From NCBI GenBank assembly GCA_018711945.1, contig DVHP01000086.1:1-58678 (forward strand): DNA of 58,678 nt, written 5' to 3'. This document shows, in pieces, positions 687 to 8,197 of the stretch (its first letter is position 1; each line of letters opens with the position of its first letter). The translations under genes and the position numbers were made by a program. The stretch is from Candidatus Ventrenecus avicola (GTDB lineage: Bacteria > Bacillota_I > Bacilli_A > RF39 > UBA660). The notes below the pieces were generated by a model. The model was given only the letters and a program-made list of their open reading frames with translations, was not told the origin of the DNA and searched no databases.

Positions 687-2891
687 ATGAGTAATAATGA
701 AAGATTTAATATTGAAAAAAAATATTTGCAGAAAGTTCAGCGTCGAATTGAAGCTGAAAAAATATATCAGAATAAAGAATTTGAGGACGTACCTCAACAA
801 TACAAGGGAAGATATTCTGATGTAAAATGGGGAGACGAAGATTTAGTTGAACATTTGCAAAGCATGATTTTAAAAGCATTAAAAAAATTAAATAATTTGG
901 AAAAAAATCCATACTTTGGAAGAATTGATTTTCAAAGAACAGGTGAAAATGAAGCAGAAAAAATATATATTGGAAAAACTACTTTAACTGATGACAATAT
1001 GGTAGACGCTCTAGTCACAGACTGGCGTTCTCCAATTTGTACTTTATATTATGATCAAAGTTTGGGTAAAGTGAGTTATGATGCTCCTCAAGGAAAAATT
1101 AGTGGAACTTTAAATTTGAAAAGTCAAATCATGATAAAAGACGGTGAATTAATTAGTGTAAGAGATACAGATTTAGTAACTGATGATGAACTATTAATTC
1201 CGTATCTCTCAACAAATGCTGATTCTAGGCTAAAAAATATAGTAGCGTCAATTCAGGCTGAGCAAAATGCGATTATTCGCAGAAGCATGAAGAAAAATAT
1301 TATTGTTCAAGGTGTTGCTGGTAGTGGCAAAACAACTGTCGCTTTGCATCGAGCAGCATATTTAATATATAATGAAGATAAATATAATGCTGATAACTTT
1401 ATGATTATTGGACCCAATAAATATTTTTTAAACTACATTTCTGCATTATTGCCTGATTTGGATACAGAAAATATTAATCAATATACTTATGAGGATTTTG
1501 CTGCTGAATTTTTAGATAATAGTGTAAATATAAAAACAGATTTACCTTCTTTAAATATATCTTCTCAAAAAGCATTAAAATATAAGACAACTTTAGAATA
1601 TAAAAATTTACTAGACTTGTATATTACAGATTATATTACCTCTGTCATCAGCCAAGGTATTTATGTTGATCAATATGAAGTTATATCTTCCGAAAAAATA
1701 CAAGAATATTTTAAAAATTTAAAGGGTGCACCACTAAATATTTTTATTCAAAATTTAAAAAAAACATTGTCAAAAAGAATTAAAGATAATCATGAAAAAA
1801 TATTTGATGAAATAAAAAAACAATTTGCTGAAGACATGAAAAAGTTTTCAAAAGAAAGTGAAGAATTCAAAAAATTATCTACTAGATTAGATACAATAAA
1901 AAAAGAATTACAAAAAGGCTGTTCGACTGTAATTAAAAATTATTTTAAACCATTAACAATCAGCTCTATTAATTTATATAAAAATTTTATTTCATCTTTA
2001 ACTGAAGTTCCCGGATTAGATTCGAAAGAACTCCTAATTTTTAAAAAACAATCTTTGGAACAAATTAAAGAAAAAAAATTTTGCTTTGAAGAAATTCCAG
2101 CGGTTATGTATTTGGATATGATTTTAAACGGCAATGAACGATCAGAATTCAGAAAAATTGCTCATGTGATAATTGATGAAGCTCAAGATTTAGGTATGTT
2201 CCATTACTTTATGCTTTCTAATGTTTTTAAACAAGCAACTTTTTCTATATTTGGTGATTTAGCACAATCTATTTATCCTACTAGAGGTATAGACAGTTGG
2301 GAAGATGTAAATAAAAAAATATTTTCTTCAAATTGTGATTTGTTATTATTGAGTAAAAGCTATCGAACTACCATTGAAATTACTGAAAATGCTAATGCTA
2401 TCTTAAAGCAAATCAGGCTAGCACAAGCATTACCTGTTATTAGAAATGGAATTCCAGTTACTTATGCCAAAACTGAACCTGAGAATTATGTTGATTTCAT
2501 ATTGGACACAATTGATGATTTCAAGAAAAAATCATATCAATCCATTGGAATTATTTGCAAAAGTAGTGAAGAATGCAAAATGTTAAAAGAAATTTTAGAT
2601 GTTCATAATATTAATGTTTCTCTTATAAGCAATGAAGAAAGTGAGTACATTGGTGGCATAAGTTTATTAACAAGTGAATTATCAAAAGGATTGGAGTTTG
2701 ATGGAGTGATTGTGACAGATGCATCTGAAAAATGTTATTCATCAAATAGCCAAAATGATTTAAAACTTCTTTATGTTTCTTCAACAAGAGCATTACATGA
2801 ATTAAGAATTTTTTATTCTGATGAATTAAATTTAGCATTATCTGAAAATGTTGCTAATTTATCACAATCAAAATTAATAAGAAAACAATAA
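687..2891 (+). CDS. helD: HelD-type UvrD-like helicase (helicase IV / RNA polymerase recycling ATPase)
   Basis: 734 aa. N-terminal PYFGRIDF block, Walker A GVAGSGKTTVALHRAAYL, Walker B IIDEAQD, SKSYRTT, KGLEFDGVIV. Confidence 0.85.
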   Translation: MSNNERFNIEKKYLQKVQRRIEAEKIYQNKEFEDVPQQYKGRYSDVKWGDEDLVEHLQSMILKALKKLNNLEKNPYFGRIDFQRTGENEAEKIYIGKTTLTDDNMVDALVTDWRSPICTLYYDQSLGKVSYDAPQGKISGTLNLKSQIMIKDGELISVRDTDLVTDDELLIPYLSTNADSRLKNIVASIQAEQNAIIRRSMKKNIIVQGVAGSGKTTVALHRAAYLIYNEDKYNADNFMIIGPNKYFLNYISALLPDLDTENINQYTYEDFAAEFLDNSVNIKTDLPSLNISSQKALKYKTTLEYKNLLDLYITDYITSVISQGIYVDQYEVISSEKIQEYFKNLKGAPLNIFIQNLKKTLSKRIKDNHEKIFDEIKKQFAEDMKKFSKESEEFKKLSTRLDTIKKELQKGCSTVIKNYFKPLTISSINLYKNFISSLTEVPGLDSKELLIFKKQSLEQIKEKKFCFEEIPAVMYLDMILNGNERSEFRKIAHVIIDEAQDLGMFHYFMLSNVFKQATFSIFGDLAQSIYPTRGIDSWEDVNKKIFSSNCDLLLLSKSYRTTIEITENANAILKQIRLAQALPVIRNGIPVTYAKTEPENYVDFILDTIDDFKKKSYQSIGIICKSSEECKMLKEILDVHNINVSLISNEESEYIGGISLLTSELSKGLEFDGVIVTDASEKCYSSNSQNDLKLLYVSSTRALHELRIFYSDELNLALSENVANLSQSKLIRKQ

Positions 2892-2988
2892 TAACCCAAT
2901 AACATTCCAATTTGATCTTAAAAACAACTCATTTTTACCAAAAAATAAACTTGACTTCAACTAGTACTGTGATAAAATATGGTTAAAT

Positions 2989-3020
2989 ACGAAGTTTCTG
3001 TGAAAGGACTTCGTTTTTTT
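2989..3020 (+). terminator. Rho-independent terminator downstream of helD
   Basis: 7-bp stem ACGAAGT (2989-2995) / ACTTCGT (3008-3014) with inner TTTC/GAAA pairs, followed by a T7 run. Confidence 0.7.
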
Positions 3021-3060
3021 GTGAGGTGATGAAAAATATAGAAAAAAATATTGTTAATCA

Positions 3061-3089
3061 TTAGTTAAAATCGGTATCATTTTAACTAA
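3061..3089. repeat. perfect 11-bp inverted repeat (candidate operator or hairpin)
   Basis: TTAGTTAAAAT (3061-3071) and ATTTTAACTAA (3079-3089) around a 7-nt spacer. Followed by three GATTRA direct repeats at 3091, 3103 and 3113. Confidence 0.5.
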
Positions 3090-3114
3090 AGATTAACAAA
3101 TCGATTAAGAACGA

Positions 3115-3143
3115 TTGACAAAACCCTTATATTTCAGTATTAT
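3115..3143 (+). promoter_or_regulatory. sigma-A type promoter in front of the tRNA-like element
   Basis: TTGACA (3115-3120), 17-nt spacer, TATTAT (3138-3143). Confidence 0.55.
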
Positions 3144-3176
3144 ATGCTTGATGGTTGCATGGAACGAGTTCTTGCA

Positions 3177-3238
3177 AGGGGTAGTAGATTTTCACTCCAA
3201 AACTTTTGATGGGAGTTCGATTCTCTCCGCCCCTGCCA
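3177..3238 (+). ncRNA. tRNA-Trp(CCA)-derived tRNA-like RNA lacking a D-arm and the 5' anticodon-stem strand (non-canonical RNA or tRNA pseudogene)
   Basis: 3' part reads CTCCAAA-ACTTT-TGAT-GGGAG-TTCGATT-CTCTC-CGCCCCT-G-CCA, matching my recollection of the bacterial tRNA-Trp 3' half. 5' AGGGGTA pairs with CGCCCCT. Only 62 nt, so no cloverleaf is possible. Confidence 0.55.
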
Positions 3239-3250
3239 TATGTAAATAAT

Positions 3251-3275
3251 GTCCAGTCTAAGATTGGACTTTTTC
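3251..3275 (+). terminator. Rho-independent terminator after the tRNA-like element
   Basis: 8-bp stem GTCCAGTC / GATTGGAC (one G-T wobble), 3-nt loop, then TTTTT. Confidence 0.6.
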
Positions 3276-3304: not shown

Positions 3305-3631
3305 ATGGAAAAAACATATAATAAATTGGTTCGTGATAATATTCCTGAAATTATTGAAAAAAATGGAGGAAAGCCATTTTTTCGAGAGTTAAATGAGCAA
3401 GAATATTGGGAGTACTTATTAAAAAAAGATGAAGAAGAATTACAAGAAGTAAAGGAAGCATTTTCTAGAGAAGAGAGAAAAGAAGAACTTGCTGATAAGT
3501 TGGAATTACTAATAGCAATGGCTTCATATAACGGATTTAGTTTACAAGATATTATTAATGAAGCTAACATCAAAAAATCAAAAAATGGTGGTTTTGAAAA
3601 AAGATTACTATTAGAAAAGGTAATTGAATAA
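3305..3631 (+). CDS. MazG-like / PRA-PH-like nucleoside triphosphate pyrophosphohydrolase family protein
   Basis: N-terminal YNKLVRDNIPEII block and an all-alpha acidic EExxE-rich core. AGAGGTG RBS 6 nt before ATG 3305 (the ORF track starts at GTG 3296). Confidence 0.65.
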   Translation: MEKTYNKLVRDNIPEIIEKNGGKPFFRELNEQEYWEYLLKKDEEELQEVKEAFSREERKEELADKLELLIAMASYNGFSLQDIINEANIKKSKNGGFEKRLLLEKVIE

Positions 3632-7786: not shown

Positions 7787-8197
7787 ATGAATAAACGTGT
7801 AAGTTCTAGAGCAATTATTTTTGATCATGATGAAGTATATTTAATGTTTCGAAGAAAAGTTTGTGATGATTGTTCTATTAGTGAATATTATGTGGTTCCT
7901 GGTGGAGGAGTACAAGAGGGAGAAAGTTTAGAAGAAAATTTATGGAGAGAACTTCAAGAAGAGTTATCGGTGAATGTTTCTATTCTTAAGTATCTTGGTA
8001 TGGATGAAGGAAGTAATTCTGTTGCTCATTTTTTTCTTTGTAAAATAGTATCAGGAATTCCTGAGTTAGGTGGGGAAGAATTGGATAAATGTTGTGAGAA
8101 TAACTTTTATGAAATTCGAAAAGTTAAAGTAAGTGATTTGGATAGTATTGATGTTTTAGCTAAAGATATTATTAAACGGGTCCATTTTTATTTTTAA
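7787..8197 (+). CDS. NUDIX hydrolase (paralogue of 241..663)
   Basis: 136 aa. Nudix box GGGVQEGESLEENLWRELQEELSV. Shares EYYV.PGGG, AHFF.CKI, LGGEEL..CC and FYEIRKV with the first copy. Confidence 0.9.
   Translation: MNKRVSSRAIIFDHDEVYLMFRRKVCDDCSISEYYVVPGGGVQEGESLEENLWRELQEELSVNVSILKYLGMDEGSNSVAHFFLCKIVSGIPELGGEELDKCCENNFYEIRKVKVSDLDSIDVLAKDIIKRVHFYF

Follow-up and report, generated by a model that had tools for sequence, protein, structure and literature searches.

A tRNA-Trp-like sequence upstream of a MazG-like gene in Candidatus Ventrenecus avicola is probably the remnant of a trnW gene at a recombination hot spot

INTRODUCTION

Between a helicase gene and a MazG-like gene of Candidatus Ventrenecus avicola lies a 62-nt sequence whose 3' part reads as tRNA-Trp(CCA) and whose 5' part is degenerate. 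Is this sequence the remains of a trnW gene, or does it encode a tRNA-like RNA that has its own function? A first-pass annotation had proposed either a decayed trnW copy or recombination scar, or a functional tRNA-like RNA, and had preferred the latter. To answer the question, the locus was compared with its relatives, which are labeled here with L-numbers (L002, L016, L092, and so on). The window, that is, the whole stretch of DNA that was analyzed, comprises 58.7 kb from Candidatus Ventrenecus avicola, which belongs to a low-GC lineage of the chicken gut (GC content of the genome, 29%). As judged by sequence comparison, the unit is probably a broken tRNA-Trp(CCA) locus, a relic at a recombination hot spot where two blocks of DNA meet inside the tRNA.

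RESULTS

Layout of the locus

The following features were located in and around the unit.

687..2891, plus strand: HelD-type UvrD-family helicase gene (Pfam UvrD-helicase, AAA_19)
2989..3021, plus strand: hairpin and T-run terminator 3' of helD (9 pairs, then T7)
3051..3099, no strand: inverted repeat, arms 3051-3071 and 3079-3099, 7-nt spacer (20 of 21 positions match)
3091..3118, plus strand: three GATTRA direct repeats running into the -35 hexamer (motif search and L092 alignment)
3115..3143, plus strand: sigma-70-type promoter, TTGACA-17-TATTAT (11 of 12 consensus positions)
3150..3176, plus strand: predicted leader of ~26 nt with a hairpin at ~3156-3176 (from folding; start inferred from the -10 position)
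3177..3194, plus strand: degenerate 5' part, acceptor-like AGGGGTA followed by GTAGATTTTCA (direct reading and detectors)
3195..3238, plus strand: intact tRNA-Trp(CCA) 3' half (82-87% identity to annotated tRNA-Trp genes)
3251..3275, plus strand: intrinsic terminator of the trnW unit, hairpin 3251-3269 with 8 pairs (4 G-C), then T5
3305..3631, plus strand: MazG-like or PRA-PH-like pyrophosphohydrolase gene (Pfam matches to PRA-PH and MazG-like families)

The helicase is 100% identical to HIR74657.1 of Candidatus Ventrenecus avicola (NCBI), the name HelD being carried by its more distant homologues. For the MazG-like protein 486 homologues were collected; an identical protein occurs on seven contigs, five of which share the neighbor genes of L001. 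The contig stops ~3.5 kb to the left of the unit, inside a gene fragment whose HTH_38 domain is like those of IS30-type transposases. Only this fragment, a NUDIX gene, and HelD, and no integrase or recombinase gene, lie between the contig end and the tRNA fragment.

The 62-nt sequence lacks a D-arm and an anticodon stem

The sequence at 3177-3238 is present as the first-pass annotation had described it and reads AGGGGTA GTAGATTTTCA CTCCAAA ACTTT TGAT GGGAG TTCGATT CTCTC CGCCCCT G CCA. Its last 44 nt had been recognized as the 3' half of tRNA-Trp(CCA), and blastn against annotated tRNA-Trp genes bore this out at 82-87% identity, with alignments limited to 3195-3238 and reaching 3253 in some plasmid records. 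This half holds the anticodon loop, the 3' strand of the anticodon stem, the variable loop, the T-arm, the 3' strand of the acceptor, G73, and CCA. The proposed pairing of AGGGGTA with CGCCCCT also holds, with five Watson-Crick pairs, one T.G wobble, and one A.C mismatch; the T-arm (GGGAG-TTCGATT-CTCTC), acceptor stem, G73, and CCA are thus all there. In contrast, GTAGATTTTCA stands where the D-arm and the 5' strand of the anticodon stem should be. Only 11 nt separate the 5' acceptor strand from the anticodon loop, a gap that is seen against intact alleles, and TTTCA is unable to pair with ACTTT.

The claim that this is not a canonical tRNA was upheld by both detectors, neither of which returned a normal cloverleaf: ARAGORN called no tRNA gene in the window, and RF00005 scored 15.4 bits against a cutoff of 29. 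No Rfam family reached its gathering score on the unit, the best subthreshold match being mascRNA (21 bits; gathering cutoff, 42.5). The minimum-energy fold loses the T-arm, with ACUCC pairing with GGGAG, and folding z scores of -1.4 for the 62 nt and -2.2 for the full transcript are not distinctive. No T-box was found in the window.

Lacking both the D-arm and the anticodon stem, a 62-nt RNA of this kind should be unable to decode, and a working trnW would therefore lie elsewhere in the genome. Codon usage leads to the same point. TGG is in use (89 of 17,428 codons) and TGA is a stop, ending 10 of 47 open reading frames, with long frames unbroken under code 11; an intact trnW should therefore exist elsewhere in the genome. 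On the TGA stops and the unbroken long frames, a code in which UGA specifies Trp and trnW(CCA) is dispensable was rejected. An att partner inside the window was likewise ruled out, as no second copy of the 3' half was found in the 58.7 kb even with three mismatches allowed.

The unit occupies the trnW locus upstream of the MazG-like gene

Most of the relatives examined carry a tRNA-Trp gene or fragment immediately 5' of the MazG-like gene, and most carry a canonical tRNA-Trp(CCA) of 74 to 76 nt. ARAGORN called intact tRNA-Trp(CCA) in L004, L005, and L006 (MazG 91% identical), a tRNA-Trp upstream of the gene in L007 (MazG 79%), where the downstream spacer differs, and a tRNA-Trp upstream of an inserted NUDIX gene in L010 to L012 (MazG 76%). 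L021 (MazG 96%) has a complete tRNA-Trp gene as judged by reading, and those of L014 (MazG 96%), L016, and L017 (both 99%) are partial, being cut by contig ends. L004 to L006, L014, L016, L017, and L021 share the 3' junction 'ATGTAAATAAT-hairpin-TTTTTCTATAAAATTGATTAT'. In the lineage, about 35 nt separate the terminator from the MazG-like gene. Positions 3195-3238 are identical to L016 at 44 of 44 nt and 86.7% identical to L007, and the L016 identity continues at 99.1% from the 3' half into the MazG block. In L016 the three bases preceding the anticodon loop are AGT, which could pair with the ACT in ACTTT, and the window has TCA there; the upstream intactness of L016 is judged from these 3 nt before its contig end.

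By position, directly upstream of the MazG-like gene and with the same conserved terminator and spacer, the locus is trnW. Since relatives carry an intact syntenic tRNA-Trp with the same terminator, the unit is, on this comparative evidence, best described as the trnW locus of the lineage with a broken gene.

The trnW-MazG junction is variable, and the window is a mosaic

Among strains with 94 to 99% identical MazG, the DNA upstream varies: it may be different DNA, either of two tRNA alleles, or a cassette. The cassettes upstream of MazG end in a conserved hairpin plus GTGCCA, and a large serine recombinase adjoins trnW in L010. This pattern indicates that, within Candidatus Ventrenecus and among its relatives, the trnW-MazG junction is a recombination hot spot. 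The window lacks the hairpin that ends the L019 cassette. A 9-nt likeness, AACTCGTTC, exists between the leader of the window (reverse strand) and that L019 hairpin and is too short to interpret.

The window itself is a mosaic in which the HelD block on the left and the MazG block on the right each occur elsewhere, in other contexts, in close relatives, and the left and right homologies overlap within the tRNA 3' half. The left block, up to 3046, is 96 to 98% identical to L003 and 94% to L092, both in other contexts (L093 and L094 provide further ones); its end, 2908-3046, is ~97% identical to L003, which from 3047 onward has an ISAs1-type transposase instead of the unit. The helD terminator stretch is also present in L092 and L093, and the unit is absent from the HelD-bearing L003, L093, and L094. 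From 3195 the right block is 99% identical to L016 to L020, whose upstream DNA differs. The 3' half is thus identical to the alleles of other strains, keeps its native flank, and has variable DNA on the opposite side, as expected of a displaced fragment.

A second HelD-linked copy has decayed

L092 is the only other copy of the truncated form. It shares HelD and the -35 hexamer with the window, and likewise the leader and the D-armless junction, GATTTTCA followed by CT; no MazG is seen in the 62 nt left before its contig end. A 10-nt gap deletes its -10 hexamer, its anticodon reads ACA, and its 3' end reads TCA, so that CCA is lost in both places. Of the stem pairs, 2-71, 5-68, and one T-stem pair are broken and two others are reduced to wobble, against a single new pair. 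Over the 62 positions, 12 differ from the window (19%), against ~6% over helD. The divergence is about as large in the 3' half (16%) as in the 5' part (28%, over only 18 nt), and L092 alone is no proof that recombination renewed the 3' half.

No consistent compensating changes were found in L092 relative to the window. The first-pass annotation had proposed that relatives be checked for conservation of the unit and for compensatory substitutions; neither is borne out, since close strains lack the unit and L092 has decayed without consistent compensation. Together with the normal tRNA-Trp of the relatives, this decay supports a decayed trnW copy or recombination scar. Conversely, the preference for a functional tRNA-like RNA is not borne out, as L092 is decayed and the other HelD strains are without the unit.

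Promoter, repeats, and terminator

The regulatory elements previously described were all recovered. The 11-bp perfect inverted repeat at 3061-3089 forms the inner part of the larger repeat with 21-nt arms, which is restricted to the window strain and appears as an indel relative to L092, where it is absent from the alignment. All three GATTRA repeats, at 3091, 3103, and 3113, were found, and a fourth copy lies at 3054 on the minus strand; the motif is scarce in the window overall, with 77 copies where ~150 are expected. L092 keeps two of the three repeats in addition to the -35 hexamer, and the repeats at 3091..3118 may represent an operator.

The near-consensus promoter at 3115-3143 matches 11 of 12 positions. 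Matches of at least 11/12 number 10 in the whole window, compared with 5.6 ± 2.1 in shuffled sequence, and chance placement of such a promoter at the right spot and on the right strand is unlikely. In the leader, 33% of the positions aligned with L092 differ and the inner stem is lost there. The hairpin and T5 terminator at 3251-3275 was confirmed; across six loci its hairpin is kept with seven pairs, two of which are preserved by changes on both sides.

Promoter and terminator had been taken to favor expression of a dedicated RNA. Both do look intact, but their presence is explained by a trnW-MazG transcription unit. The two elements would be parts of such a unit, kept in relatives, which is a simpler account than a dedicated RNA. 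No promoter-like site was found between the terminator and the MazG-like start, so the promoter may have been kept because it feeds the downstream genes.

Wider searches

A HelD-anchored scan of genome contigs gave one locus, L003 of the same genus, without the unit. The exact leader pattern GGTTGCATGGAACGAGTTCTTGCA matched 0 viral contigs and 0 metagenome contigs. An architecture pattern for a D-armless tRNA-Trp (AGGGG, a short gap, CTCCAAA, a gap, the T-loop, and CCCCT) gave 0 matches in viral contigs and 70 in metagenome contigs. The latter were of two kinds, none related to the unit of the window: tRNA-Trp genes with a small D-arm in large tRNA arrays, several of them called by ARAGORN, and unrelated truncated tRNA-Trp fragments with AGGGG upstream by chance. 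In L067 and L086, such truncated fragments are accompanied by an intact tRNA-Trp of like orientation at a distance of 1.5 to 3.9 kb. The generic tRNA-Trp 3' half was all that blastn recovered from phages and plasmids.

DISCUSSION

How the relic may have arisen

In this lineage trnW has its own promoter and the conserved terminator, followed by the MazG-like gene. In the reading that we favor, only the 3' 44 nt of the tRNA survive intact in the window strain, still joined to the native terminator and the MazG block; to the left of 3195 would lie a different, HelD-linked block ending in an old D-armless tRNA-Trp relic. This older relic would comprise AGGGGTA, the junk standing where the D-arm and one strand of the anticodon stem should be, the leader, and the promoter. 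Recombination at a tRNA target, whether site-specific or homologous, would leave such a hybrid or displaced fragment beside the native downstream flank, and the simplest place for the working trnW would be the other end of the inserted DNA. The promoter would have been retained because it also drives the MazG-like operon, via partial read-through of the terminator.

Some points weigh on this model. The 58.7-kb window has no intact trnW, no integrase, and no second 44-nt core, and with the contig ending as it does, a model based on an island or an att pair cannot be completed. Furthermore, the 5' acceptor-like strand, the leader, and the strong promoter need an extra assumption, namely, an older relic of the whole trnW locus in the left block, as L092 suggests. 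Transposase genes at the edges of the HelD block (IS30-like in L001, ISAs1-type in L003) make IS-mediated or homologous recombination an alternative to an integrase.

Alternative explanations

The strongest competitor, which we regard as possible though a good deal less likely, is that the resident trnW decayed where it stands, without any mobile element. Made dispensable by a second trnW copy, the gene would have lost ~11 nt of D-arm by slippage at short GTA repeats, point mutations would have followed, and HelD would merely happen to lie upstream. Indeed, 'AGGGGTA|GTAGA' can be derived from canonical 'AGGGGTA TAGTTCAGTTG GTAGAAC' by an 11-nt deletion, the promoter, ~26-nt leader, and terminator are laid out as in the intact trnW of L007 and L010, and the acceptor changes resemble the G/C-to-A/T transitions expected at 29% GC. 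However, the sequence past GTAGA needs more than one deletion, and the 5' 18 nt are heavily altered compared with 3' 44 nt that are identical to L016. The D-armless junction is moreover HelD-linked in L092 too, with MazG not seen in the remaining 62 nt, and the left and right blocks are found apart in close relatives.

It is improbable, in our estimation, that the unit is an exapted tRNA-like small RNA with a nontranslational role comparable to that of tRNA-Other of Bacillus cereus. A transcript of ~125 nt, made from the strong and possibly operator-controlled promoter, would be processed by RNase P and 3' trimming into an acceptor/T-arm minihelix with a CCA loop and a CCA end, which could bind TrpRS or a T-box, act as a decoy for tRNA-directed enzymes, or modulate read-through into the MazG-like operon. 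The 11/12 promoter, the inverted repeat and GATTRA cluster overlapping the -35 hexamer, and the intact T-arm, G73, A1-U72, G5-C68, CCA anticodon, CCA end, and terminator are all consistent with this, as is the precedent of an expressed Trp-anticodon pseudo-tRNA in B. cereus (PMC3399842). Given the strong promoter and an intact acceptor/T-arm with an encoded CCA, a stable transcript could be produced. On the other hand, strains with 94 to 99% identical MazG have normal tRNA or other DNA at this position; the unit is missing in L003, L093, and L094; and L092 has lost pairs, anticodon, CCA, and -10 hexamer. The fold is unremarkable (z = -1.4 and -2.2) and does not keep the T-arm, no Rfam family was found at cutoff and no T-box in the window, and the architecture search of viral and metagenome contigs found no similar element. 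Slightly less probable still is a mixed history, in which the hybrid relic was recruited as a regulated tRNA-like sRNA, transcribed from the strong promoter with its flanking operator-like repeats and processed to a minihelix with Trp identity elements. The target of such an sRNA would be TrpRS or some other factor that binds tRNA, or else it would adjust read-through into the operon of MazG-like, RsgA, HD, and NUDIX genes.

An assembly chimera, in which the metagenome assembler joined two strains or loci via shared tRNA sequence and no real 62-nt molecule exists, seems very unlikely. The contigs of L002, L008, L009, L014, L016, and L017 do break inside the tRNA, and the assembly graph is tangled there. 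Yet L092, an independent assembly of a different sample, has the D-armless junction, GATTTTCA plus CT, amid many substitutions; the identical MazG protein is on seven contigs, five with the neighbor genes of L001; and joining at the shared 44-mer would not yield the 5' part AGGGGTAGTAGATTTTCA. Finally, a working, extremely reduced tRNA-Trp is scarcely credible: its trnW position, CCA anticodon, T-arm, acceptor stem, G73, and CCA, and the D-armless tRNAs known in some mitochondria (PMC3399842), are outweighed by the complete absence of an anticodon stem, the A.C mismatch in the acceptor, the failure in ARAGORN and RF00005, the normal genes of relatives at 96 to 99%, and the loss of the anticodon in L092.

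Meaning of the locus

For annotation, the unit is a trnW pseudogene or fragment and not a new RNA class, and beyond that little follows from it. The very active trnW-MazG junction may be informative on the use of tRNA genes by mobile DNA in uncultured gut bacteria. If the functional reading were true, the unit would be a second, independent Trp-anticodon pseudo-tRNA with a regulatory use, after tRNA-Other of B. cereus and in an uncultured gut lineage.

Comparison with known systems

Genomic islands are known to insert into tRNA genes, where a regenerated gene and a displaced fragment then remain (Islander database, PMC4383910). The window unit resembles the att fragments of islands and prophages in that its 3' part equals a functional allele with the native downstream flank and a variable other side. 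Further likenesses are the junctions within or at the end of the tRNA, the reuse of the locus in relatives, and the recombinase beside trnW in L010. The window differs in having no integrase, regenerated trnW, or second core copy. A simple displaced fragment, moreover, would have no 5' acceptor-like strand, leader, or strong promoter, whereas the unit has all three.

The closest functional precedent is tRNA-Other of B. cereus ATCC 14579, an expressed pseudo-tRNA with a Trp anticodon that lies beside a genomic island (PMC3399842). It affects trpS1 expression and antibiotic resistance, with deletion phenotypes measured (PMC3399842). It is ~74 nt long, is predicted by tRNA finders, follows a thioesterase gene, and is contained in longer transcripts, which reach as far as 565 nt to its 5' side and 523 nt to its 3' side (PMC3399842). 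Like the unit studied here, it has a CCA (Trp) anticodon, lies at the edge of variable DNA, and has promoter-like sequences and putative regulator sites upstream. Neither would have a normal tRNA use, as judged for the unit from its missing arms (loop CTCCAAA). The unit differs in being 62 nt long, in lacking a D-arm and an anticodon stem, in failing the finders, in its lineage and context, and in the decay of its sister copy. Identity with tRNA-Other was rejected on the published size, finder calls, thioesterase neighbor, and transcripts, the two being set apart by description (PMC3399842). Maintenance from strain to strain, as for a functional pseudo-tRNA, fails in L092, L003, L093, L094, and the strains with 94 to 99% identical MazG.

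With ordinary bacterial tRNA pseudogenes the unit shares its derivation from tRNA-Trp, the loss of structure, the stem-weakening transitions, and a functional copy presumed elsewhere. Unlike them, it has decayed very unevenly: the 5' part is scrambled and the 3' half pristine, which speaks for a recombination junction and against uniform drift. Other short acceptor/T-arm RNAs, of about 56 to 62 nt, are mascRNA/menRNA (RF01684) and the D-armless mitochondrial tRNAs. mascRNA and menRNA are eukaryotic and unrelated, and at 21 bits against 42.5 the likeness comes down to the retained T-arm and acceptor only.

The tRNA-like unit between helD and the MazG-like gene

The metagenome contig from which the window is drawn (ENA ERZ4767204, NODE_54; window GC content, ~29%) encodes a HelD protein that matches NCBI HIR74657.1 (Candidatus Ventrenecus avicola) at 100% identity; among species genomes, the sole relative found was an uncultured Bacilli MAG of chicken origin. 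TGA terminates 10 of 47 ORFs, and TGG accounts for 89 of 17,428 codons; the genetic code is therefore the standard one, and the organism requires a tRNA-Trp(CCA). The inverted repeat, GATTRA repeats, promoter, tRNA-like sequence and terminator listed in the first-pass annotation are all present in the sequence, although its 11-bp perfect inverted repeat is only the core of a larger one:

3051-3071 and 3079-3099: inverted repeat, 21-nt arms, 20/21 matching
3115-3143, + strand: promoter TTGACA-17-TATTAT, 11/12 consensus positions (consensus scan)
3177-3238, + strand: tRNA-like sequence, AGGGGTA GTAGATTTTCA CTCCAAA ACTTT TGAT GGGAG TTCGATT CTCTC CGCCCCT G CCA
3251-3269, + strand: terminator, then T5 (consensus scan)

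The three GATTRA repeats were confirmed and a fourth was found on the opposite strand; elsewhere in the window the motif is under-represented. Promoter sites matching at least 11/12 positions number 10 in 58.7 kb (both strands), compared with 5.6 +/- 2.1 in shuffles, and several of the others stand before operons.

As had been proposed, the tRNA-like sequence is not a canonical cloverleaf. ARAGORN called no tRNA over the whole window, and an Rfam search returned no family at its gathering score; when the search was relaxed, the tRNA model scored 15.4 bits against a cut-off of 29, and the top sub-threshold match was mascRNA, a eukaryotic tRNA-like RNA (21 bits against 42.5). Using blastn with phage and plasmid records, positions 3195-3238 (to 3253 in some plasmid records) aligned alone to annotated tRNA-Trp genes at 82-87% identity. 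The 3' 44 nt, likened to tRNA-Trp in the first-pass annotation, are therefore its 3' half.

An intact trnW precedes the MazG-like gene in most relatives examined

Homologues of the MazG-like gene number in the hundreds, and surrounding DNA was retrieved for several (L numbers denote the compared loci; percentages, MazG protein identity to the window). Most retrieved loci carry a normal tRNA-Trp(CCA) immediately upstream of the gene, followed, as in the window, by 'ATGTAAATAAT - hairpin - TTTTTCTATAAAATTGATTAT'. ARAGORN called this tRNA-Trp in L004, L005 and L006 (91%), in L007 (79%), where the downstream spacer is different, and in L010-L012 (76%), where it lies just upstream of an inserted NUDIX gene. 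A complete gene was recognized by reading in L021 (96%), and partial ones, cut by contig ends, are present in L014 (96%) and in L016 and L017 (99%). The terminator hairpin is conserved in these loci, two of its pairs having changed on both sides, and a promoter-like site lies a few to ~30 nt upstream of each intact tRNA-Trp gene. That tRNA-Trp occupies the same place in relatives shows that the unit is the trnW unit of this lineage and that the tRNA inside it is broken in the window strain. Of the stand-alone transcription unit originally described, the promoter and terminator hold, but its identity is that of a trnW unit with an intact tRNA-Trp in relatives.

NUDIX hydrolase genes lie at 241-663 and 7787-8197 of the window and are probably paralogues, because the NUDIX copy of L003, the closest species genome, matches both at 73% nucleotide identity. 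Such genes also adjoin trnW/MazG in L008-L012, L016 and L021; nucleotide-pyrophosphatase genes (NUDIX, MazG-like, HD) thus cluster repeatedly around the trnW-MazG locus.

Unusual tRNA-Trp forms were also encountered. Genes for tRNA-Trp(CCA) of 69-71 nt with a very small D-arm (4-bp stem, 3-nt loop; e.g., AGGGGTG CCGC TGG GCGG ...) occur in metagenome contigs L038, L046, L050, L052, L059, L068, L075, L082 and L090, as members of tandem tRNA arrays (10-27 genes) on soil and rhizosphere contigs, and ARAGORN calls only some of them. Sequences without a D-arm that keep the anticodon stem and T-arm are found at L058 2460-2517, L076 1207-1264, L078 1752-1809, and L030 888-944 and 6559-6615. The first three, among which L078 alone carries a human-gut label, are identical (AGGGGAT TTTCTT ACGGT CTCCAAA ACCGT AGAT GGGGG TTCGAGC CCCTC TTCCCCT; anticodon stem intact, CCA not encoded); L030 has a similar sequence twice, 5.7 kb apart with identical flanks, its anticodon stem containing one mismatch. 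Neither D-armless form is called by ARAGORN; an origin as att-type fragments is one possibility among others.

The window is a mosaic of two blocks

The left DNA, up to 3046, comprises a NUDIX gene, helD and the helD terminator. It is 96-98% identical to L003 and 94% to L092, recurs in L093/L094, and has different surroundings in each; beyond the equivalent of 3046, L003 runs into an ISAs1-type transposase gene (L003 6324-7406; DDE_Tnp_1 and DDE_Tnp_1_assoc domains), and L093 and L094 carry unrelated genes. The right DNA, from 3195, is 99% identical to L016-L020, all of which have different upstream sequences. L016 is identical at all 44 nt of the tRNA 3' half; just 5' of the anticodon loop it has AGT, which could pair with the ACT of ACTTT, whereas the window has TCA. 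In L017 and L021 the tRNA-Trp is a second allele, differing in its T-arm, and L019 (99%) and L013 (94%) have, instead of a tRNA, a cassette ending in a hairpin and GTGCCA. The varying upstream DNA, the two alleles and the cassettes among close relatives thus show the trnW-MazG locus to be a recombination hot spot, whose junctions fall within the tRNA or at its end.

The cassettes end in a conserved element of ~28 nt, TTTGG(A/G)AACTCGTTCAGTTTCC GTG(C/T)CA, consisting of a 6-bp hairpin and then GTGCCA, which is absent from the window:

L010, 3919-3946
L011, 3919-3946
L012, 1899-1926
L013, 517-544
L019, 448-475

The element sits exactly at the expected tRNA-Trp 3' end, with the same terminator and MazG gene attached, and closes differing upstream cassettes (a NUDIX gene in L010-L012, with an intact tRNA-Trp just upstream in L010; unrelated ORFs without a Pfam match in L013 and L019). 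It is near-identical between relatives with MazG only 76% identical, and may be a site of recombination or what decay has left of a tRNA 3' end.

To the left, the contig breaks off after 3.5 kb, within a fragment that encodes an HTH_38 domain (L001, the window's own contig, 3-176; 217 nt left of the window start), a domain typical of the IS30-family transposase N-terminus. Transposase genes thus stand at the edges of the HelD block in L001 (IS30-type-like fragment) and L003 (ISAs1-type). Downstream of helD, L003, L092 and L093 part from one another just past 'agataaaaaa', which therefore marks a second breakpoint hot spot. An indel of ~50 nt relative to L092 corresponds to the inverted repeat (window 3047-3100), L092 passing directly from 'agataaaaaaca' to GATTAAGAAC GATTGACAAAAC repeats. 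Also downstream of helD, a promoter-like TTGACT-16-TAAAAT with a TG extension (2951-2978) is followed after ~10 nt by a terminator hairpin and T-run (2989-3021). This stretch is well conserved in L003, L092 and L093/L094, with the T-run shortened in L093; it is probably just the helD terminator and, less probably, a tiny transcription unit. In L003 (4001-6072), helD is broken into three ORFs, with window 2766-2907 missing, and a HelD fragment of 197 aa (P0241; protein cluster of P0121) occurs on 29 contigs, so a broken helD seems commoner than the intact form in this lineage.

A sister copy of the unit is decayed

L092, from a different sample, carries a helD variant in a different context and, downstream of it, a homologue of the whole unit. 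It retains the GATTAAGAACGATTGACAAAAC stretch, -35 hexamer included; the -10 hexamer is removed by a 10-nt gap, and a diverged leader follows. Its tRNA-like part reads GAGGATAGGTGATTTTCA CTACAAA ACTTT TAGT GGAAG TTCGATT CTCTC TGCTCCT GTCA. The junction GATTTTCA, directly before the anticodon loop, is the same in L092 and the window, and is therefore real and older than the split of the copies. L092 has anticodon ACA in place of CCA and a 3' end of TCA in place of CCA; of its stem pairs, three no longer form (2-71, 5-68 and one of the T-stem), two persist only as wobbles, and there is one new pair. Its tRNA-like part departs from that of the window at 12/62 positions, against ~6% over helD, and L092 has neither the terminator hairpin nor the 21-nt-arm inverted repeat. 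Unselected DNA changes in this manner, and the decay is direct evidence against the truncated form as a conserved functional RNA.

Probable origin of the hybrid tRNA sequence

The site is the trnW locus: the tRNA 3' half and everything right of it are the conserved MazG block, and everything left is a HelD-linked block whose end is an old trnW relic without a D-arm. Within 3195-3249 the homologies of the two blocks overlap. We infer that recombination within the tRNA sequence joined the blocks, either site-specifically (integrase/recombinase) or homologously (relic x resident gene), which would yield a hybrid whose 5' part is decayed and whose 3' half is pristine. Simple decay in place, in which 11 nt were lost by slippage between GTA repeats and point mutations accumulated, accounts for 'AGGGGTA|GTAGA'; however, it leaves unexplained both the uneven decay and the separate occurrence of the left and right blocks in close relatives, and we consider it rather doubtful. 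An expressed tRNA-like RNA with a function, which the first-pass annotation favoured, is not supported. An exapted small RNA of this kind has a precedent in B. cereus tRNA-Other (PMC3399842), and the promoter, acceptor/T-arm and CCA are intact, but neither conservation nor covariation speaks for it, L092 is decayed, and the folds are unremarkable, the minimum-energy structure pairing ACUCC with GGGAG and not forming the T-arm; it is highly improbable. Nothing related to the tRNA-like element turned up when viral and metagenome contigs were searched by pattern. An assembly chimera is unlikely, since the junction recurs in L092 and the arrangement is seen on several contigs. A working minimal tRNA is very unlikely.

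Lacking a D-arm and an anticodon stem, the hybrid should be unable to decode, so a working trnW is expected at another site, most simply past the contig's left end. The consensus scan found no promoter-like site in the ~35-nt gap between the terminator and the start of the MazG-like gene (3305..3631, + strand); the unit's promoter has probably survived because that gene lacks such a site of its own. In L092, where the -10 hexamer is gone, MazG is not seen within the 62 nt past the relic, where the contig ends.

The alternative raised at first pass, a decayed trnW copy or recombination scar, is supported by the intact trnW in relatives, the block boundaries and L092. In the standard model as outlined in PMC4383910, an element that integrates into a tRNA gene restores that gene at one of its ends, and a displaced fragment remains at its other end. 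Truncated tRNA-Trp fragments were common in a metagenome scan, and two scan loci pair one with an intact tRNA-Trp in the same orientation:

L067, 597-672 and 4511-4563: intact tRNA-Trp and truncated 3' fragment, 3.9 kb apart
L086, 3717-3791 and 2130-2178, minus strand: intact tRNA-Trp and truncated 3' fragment, 1.5 kb apart

Both have the appearance of classic att pairs that bracket small elements inserted at trnW. Remnants of tRNA genes at recombination junctions are well known, and the feature in the window is a further one.
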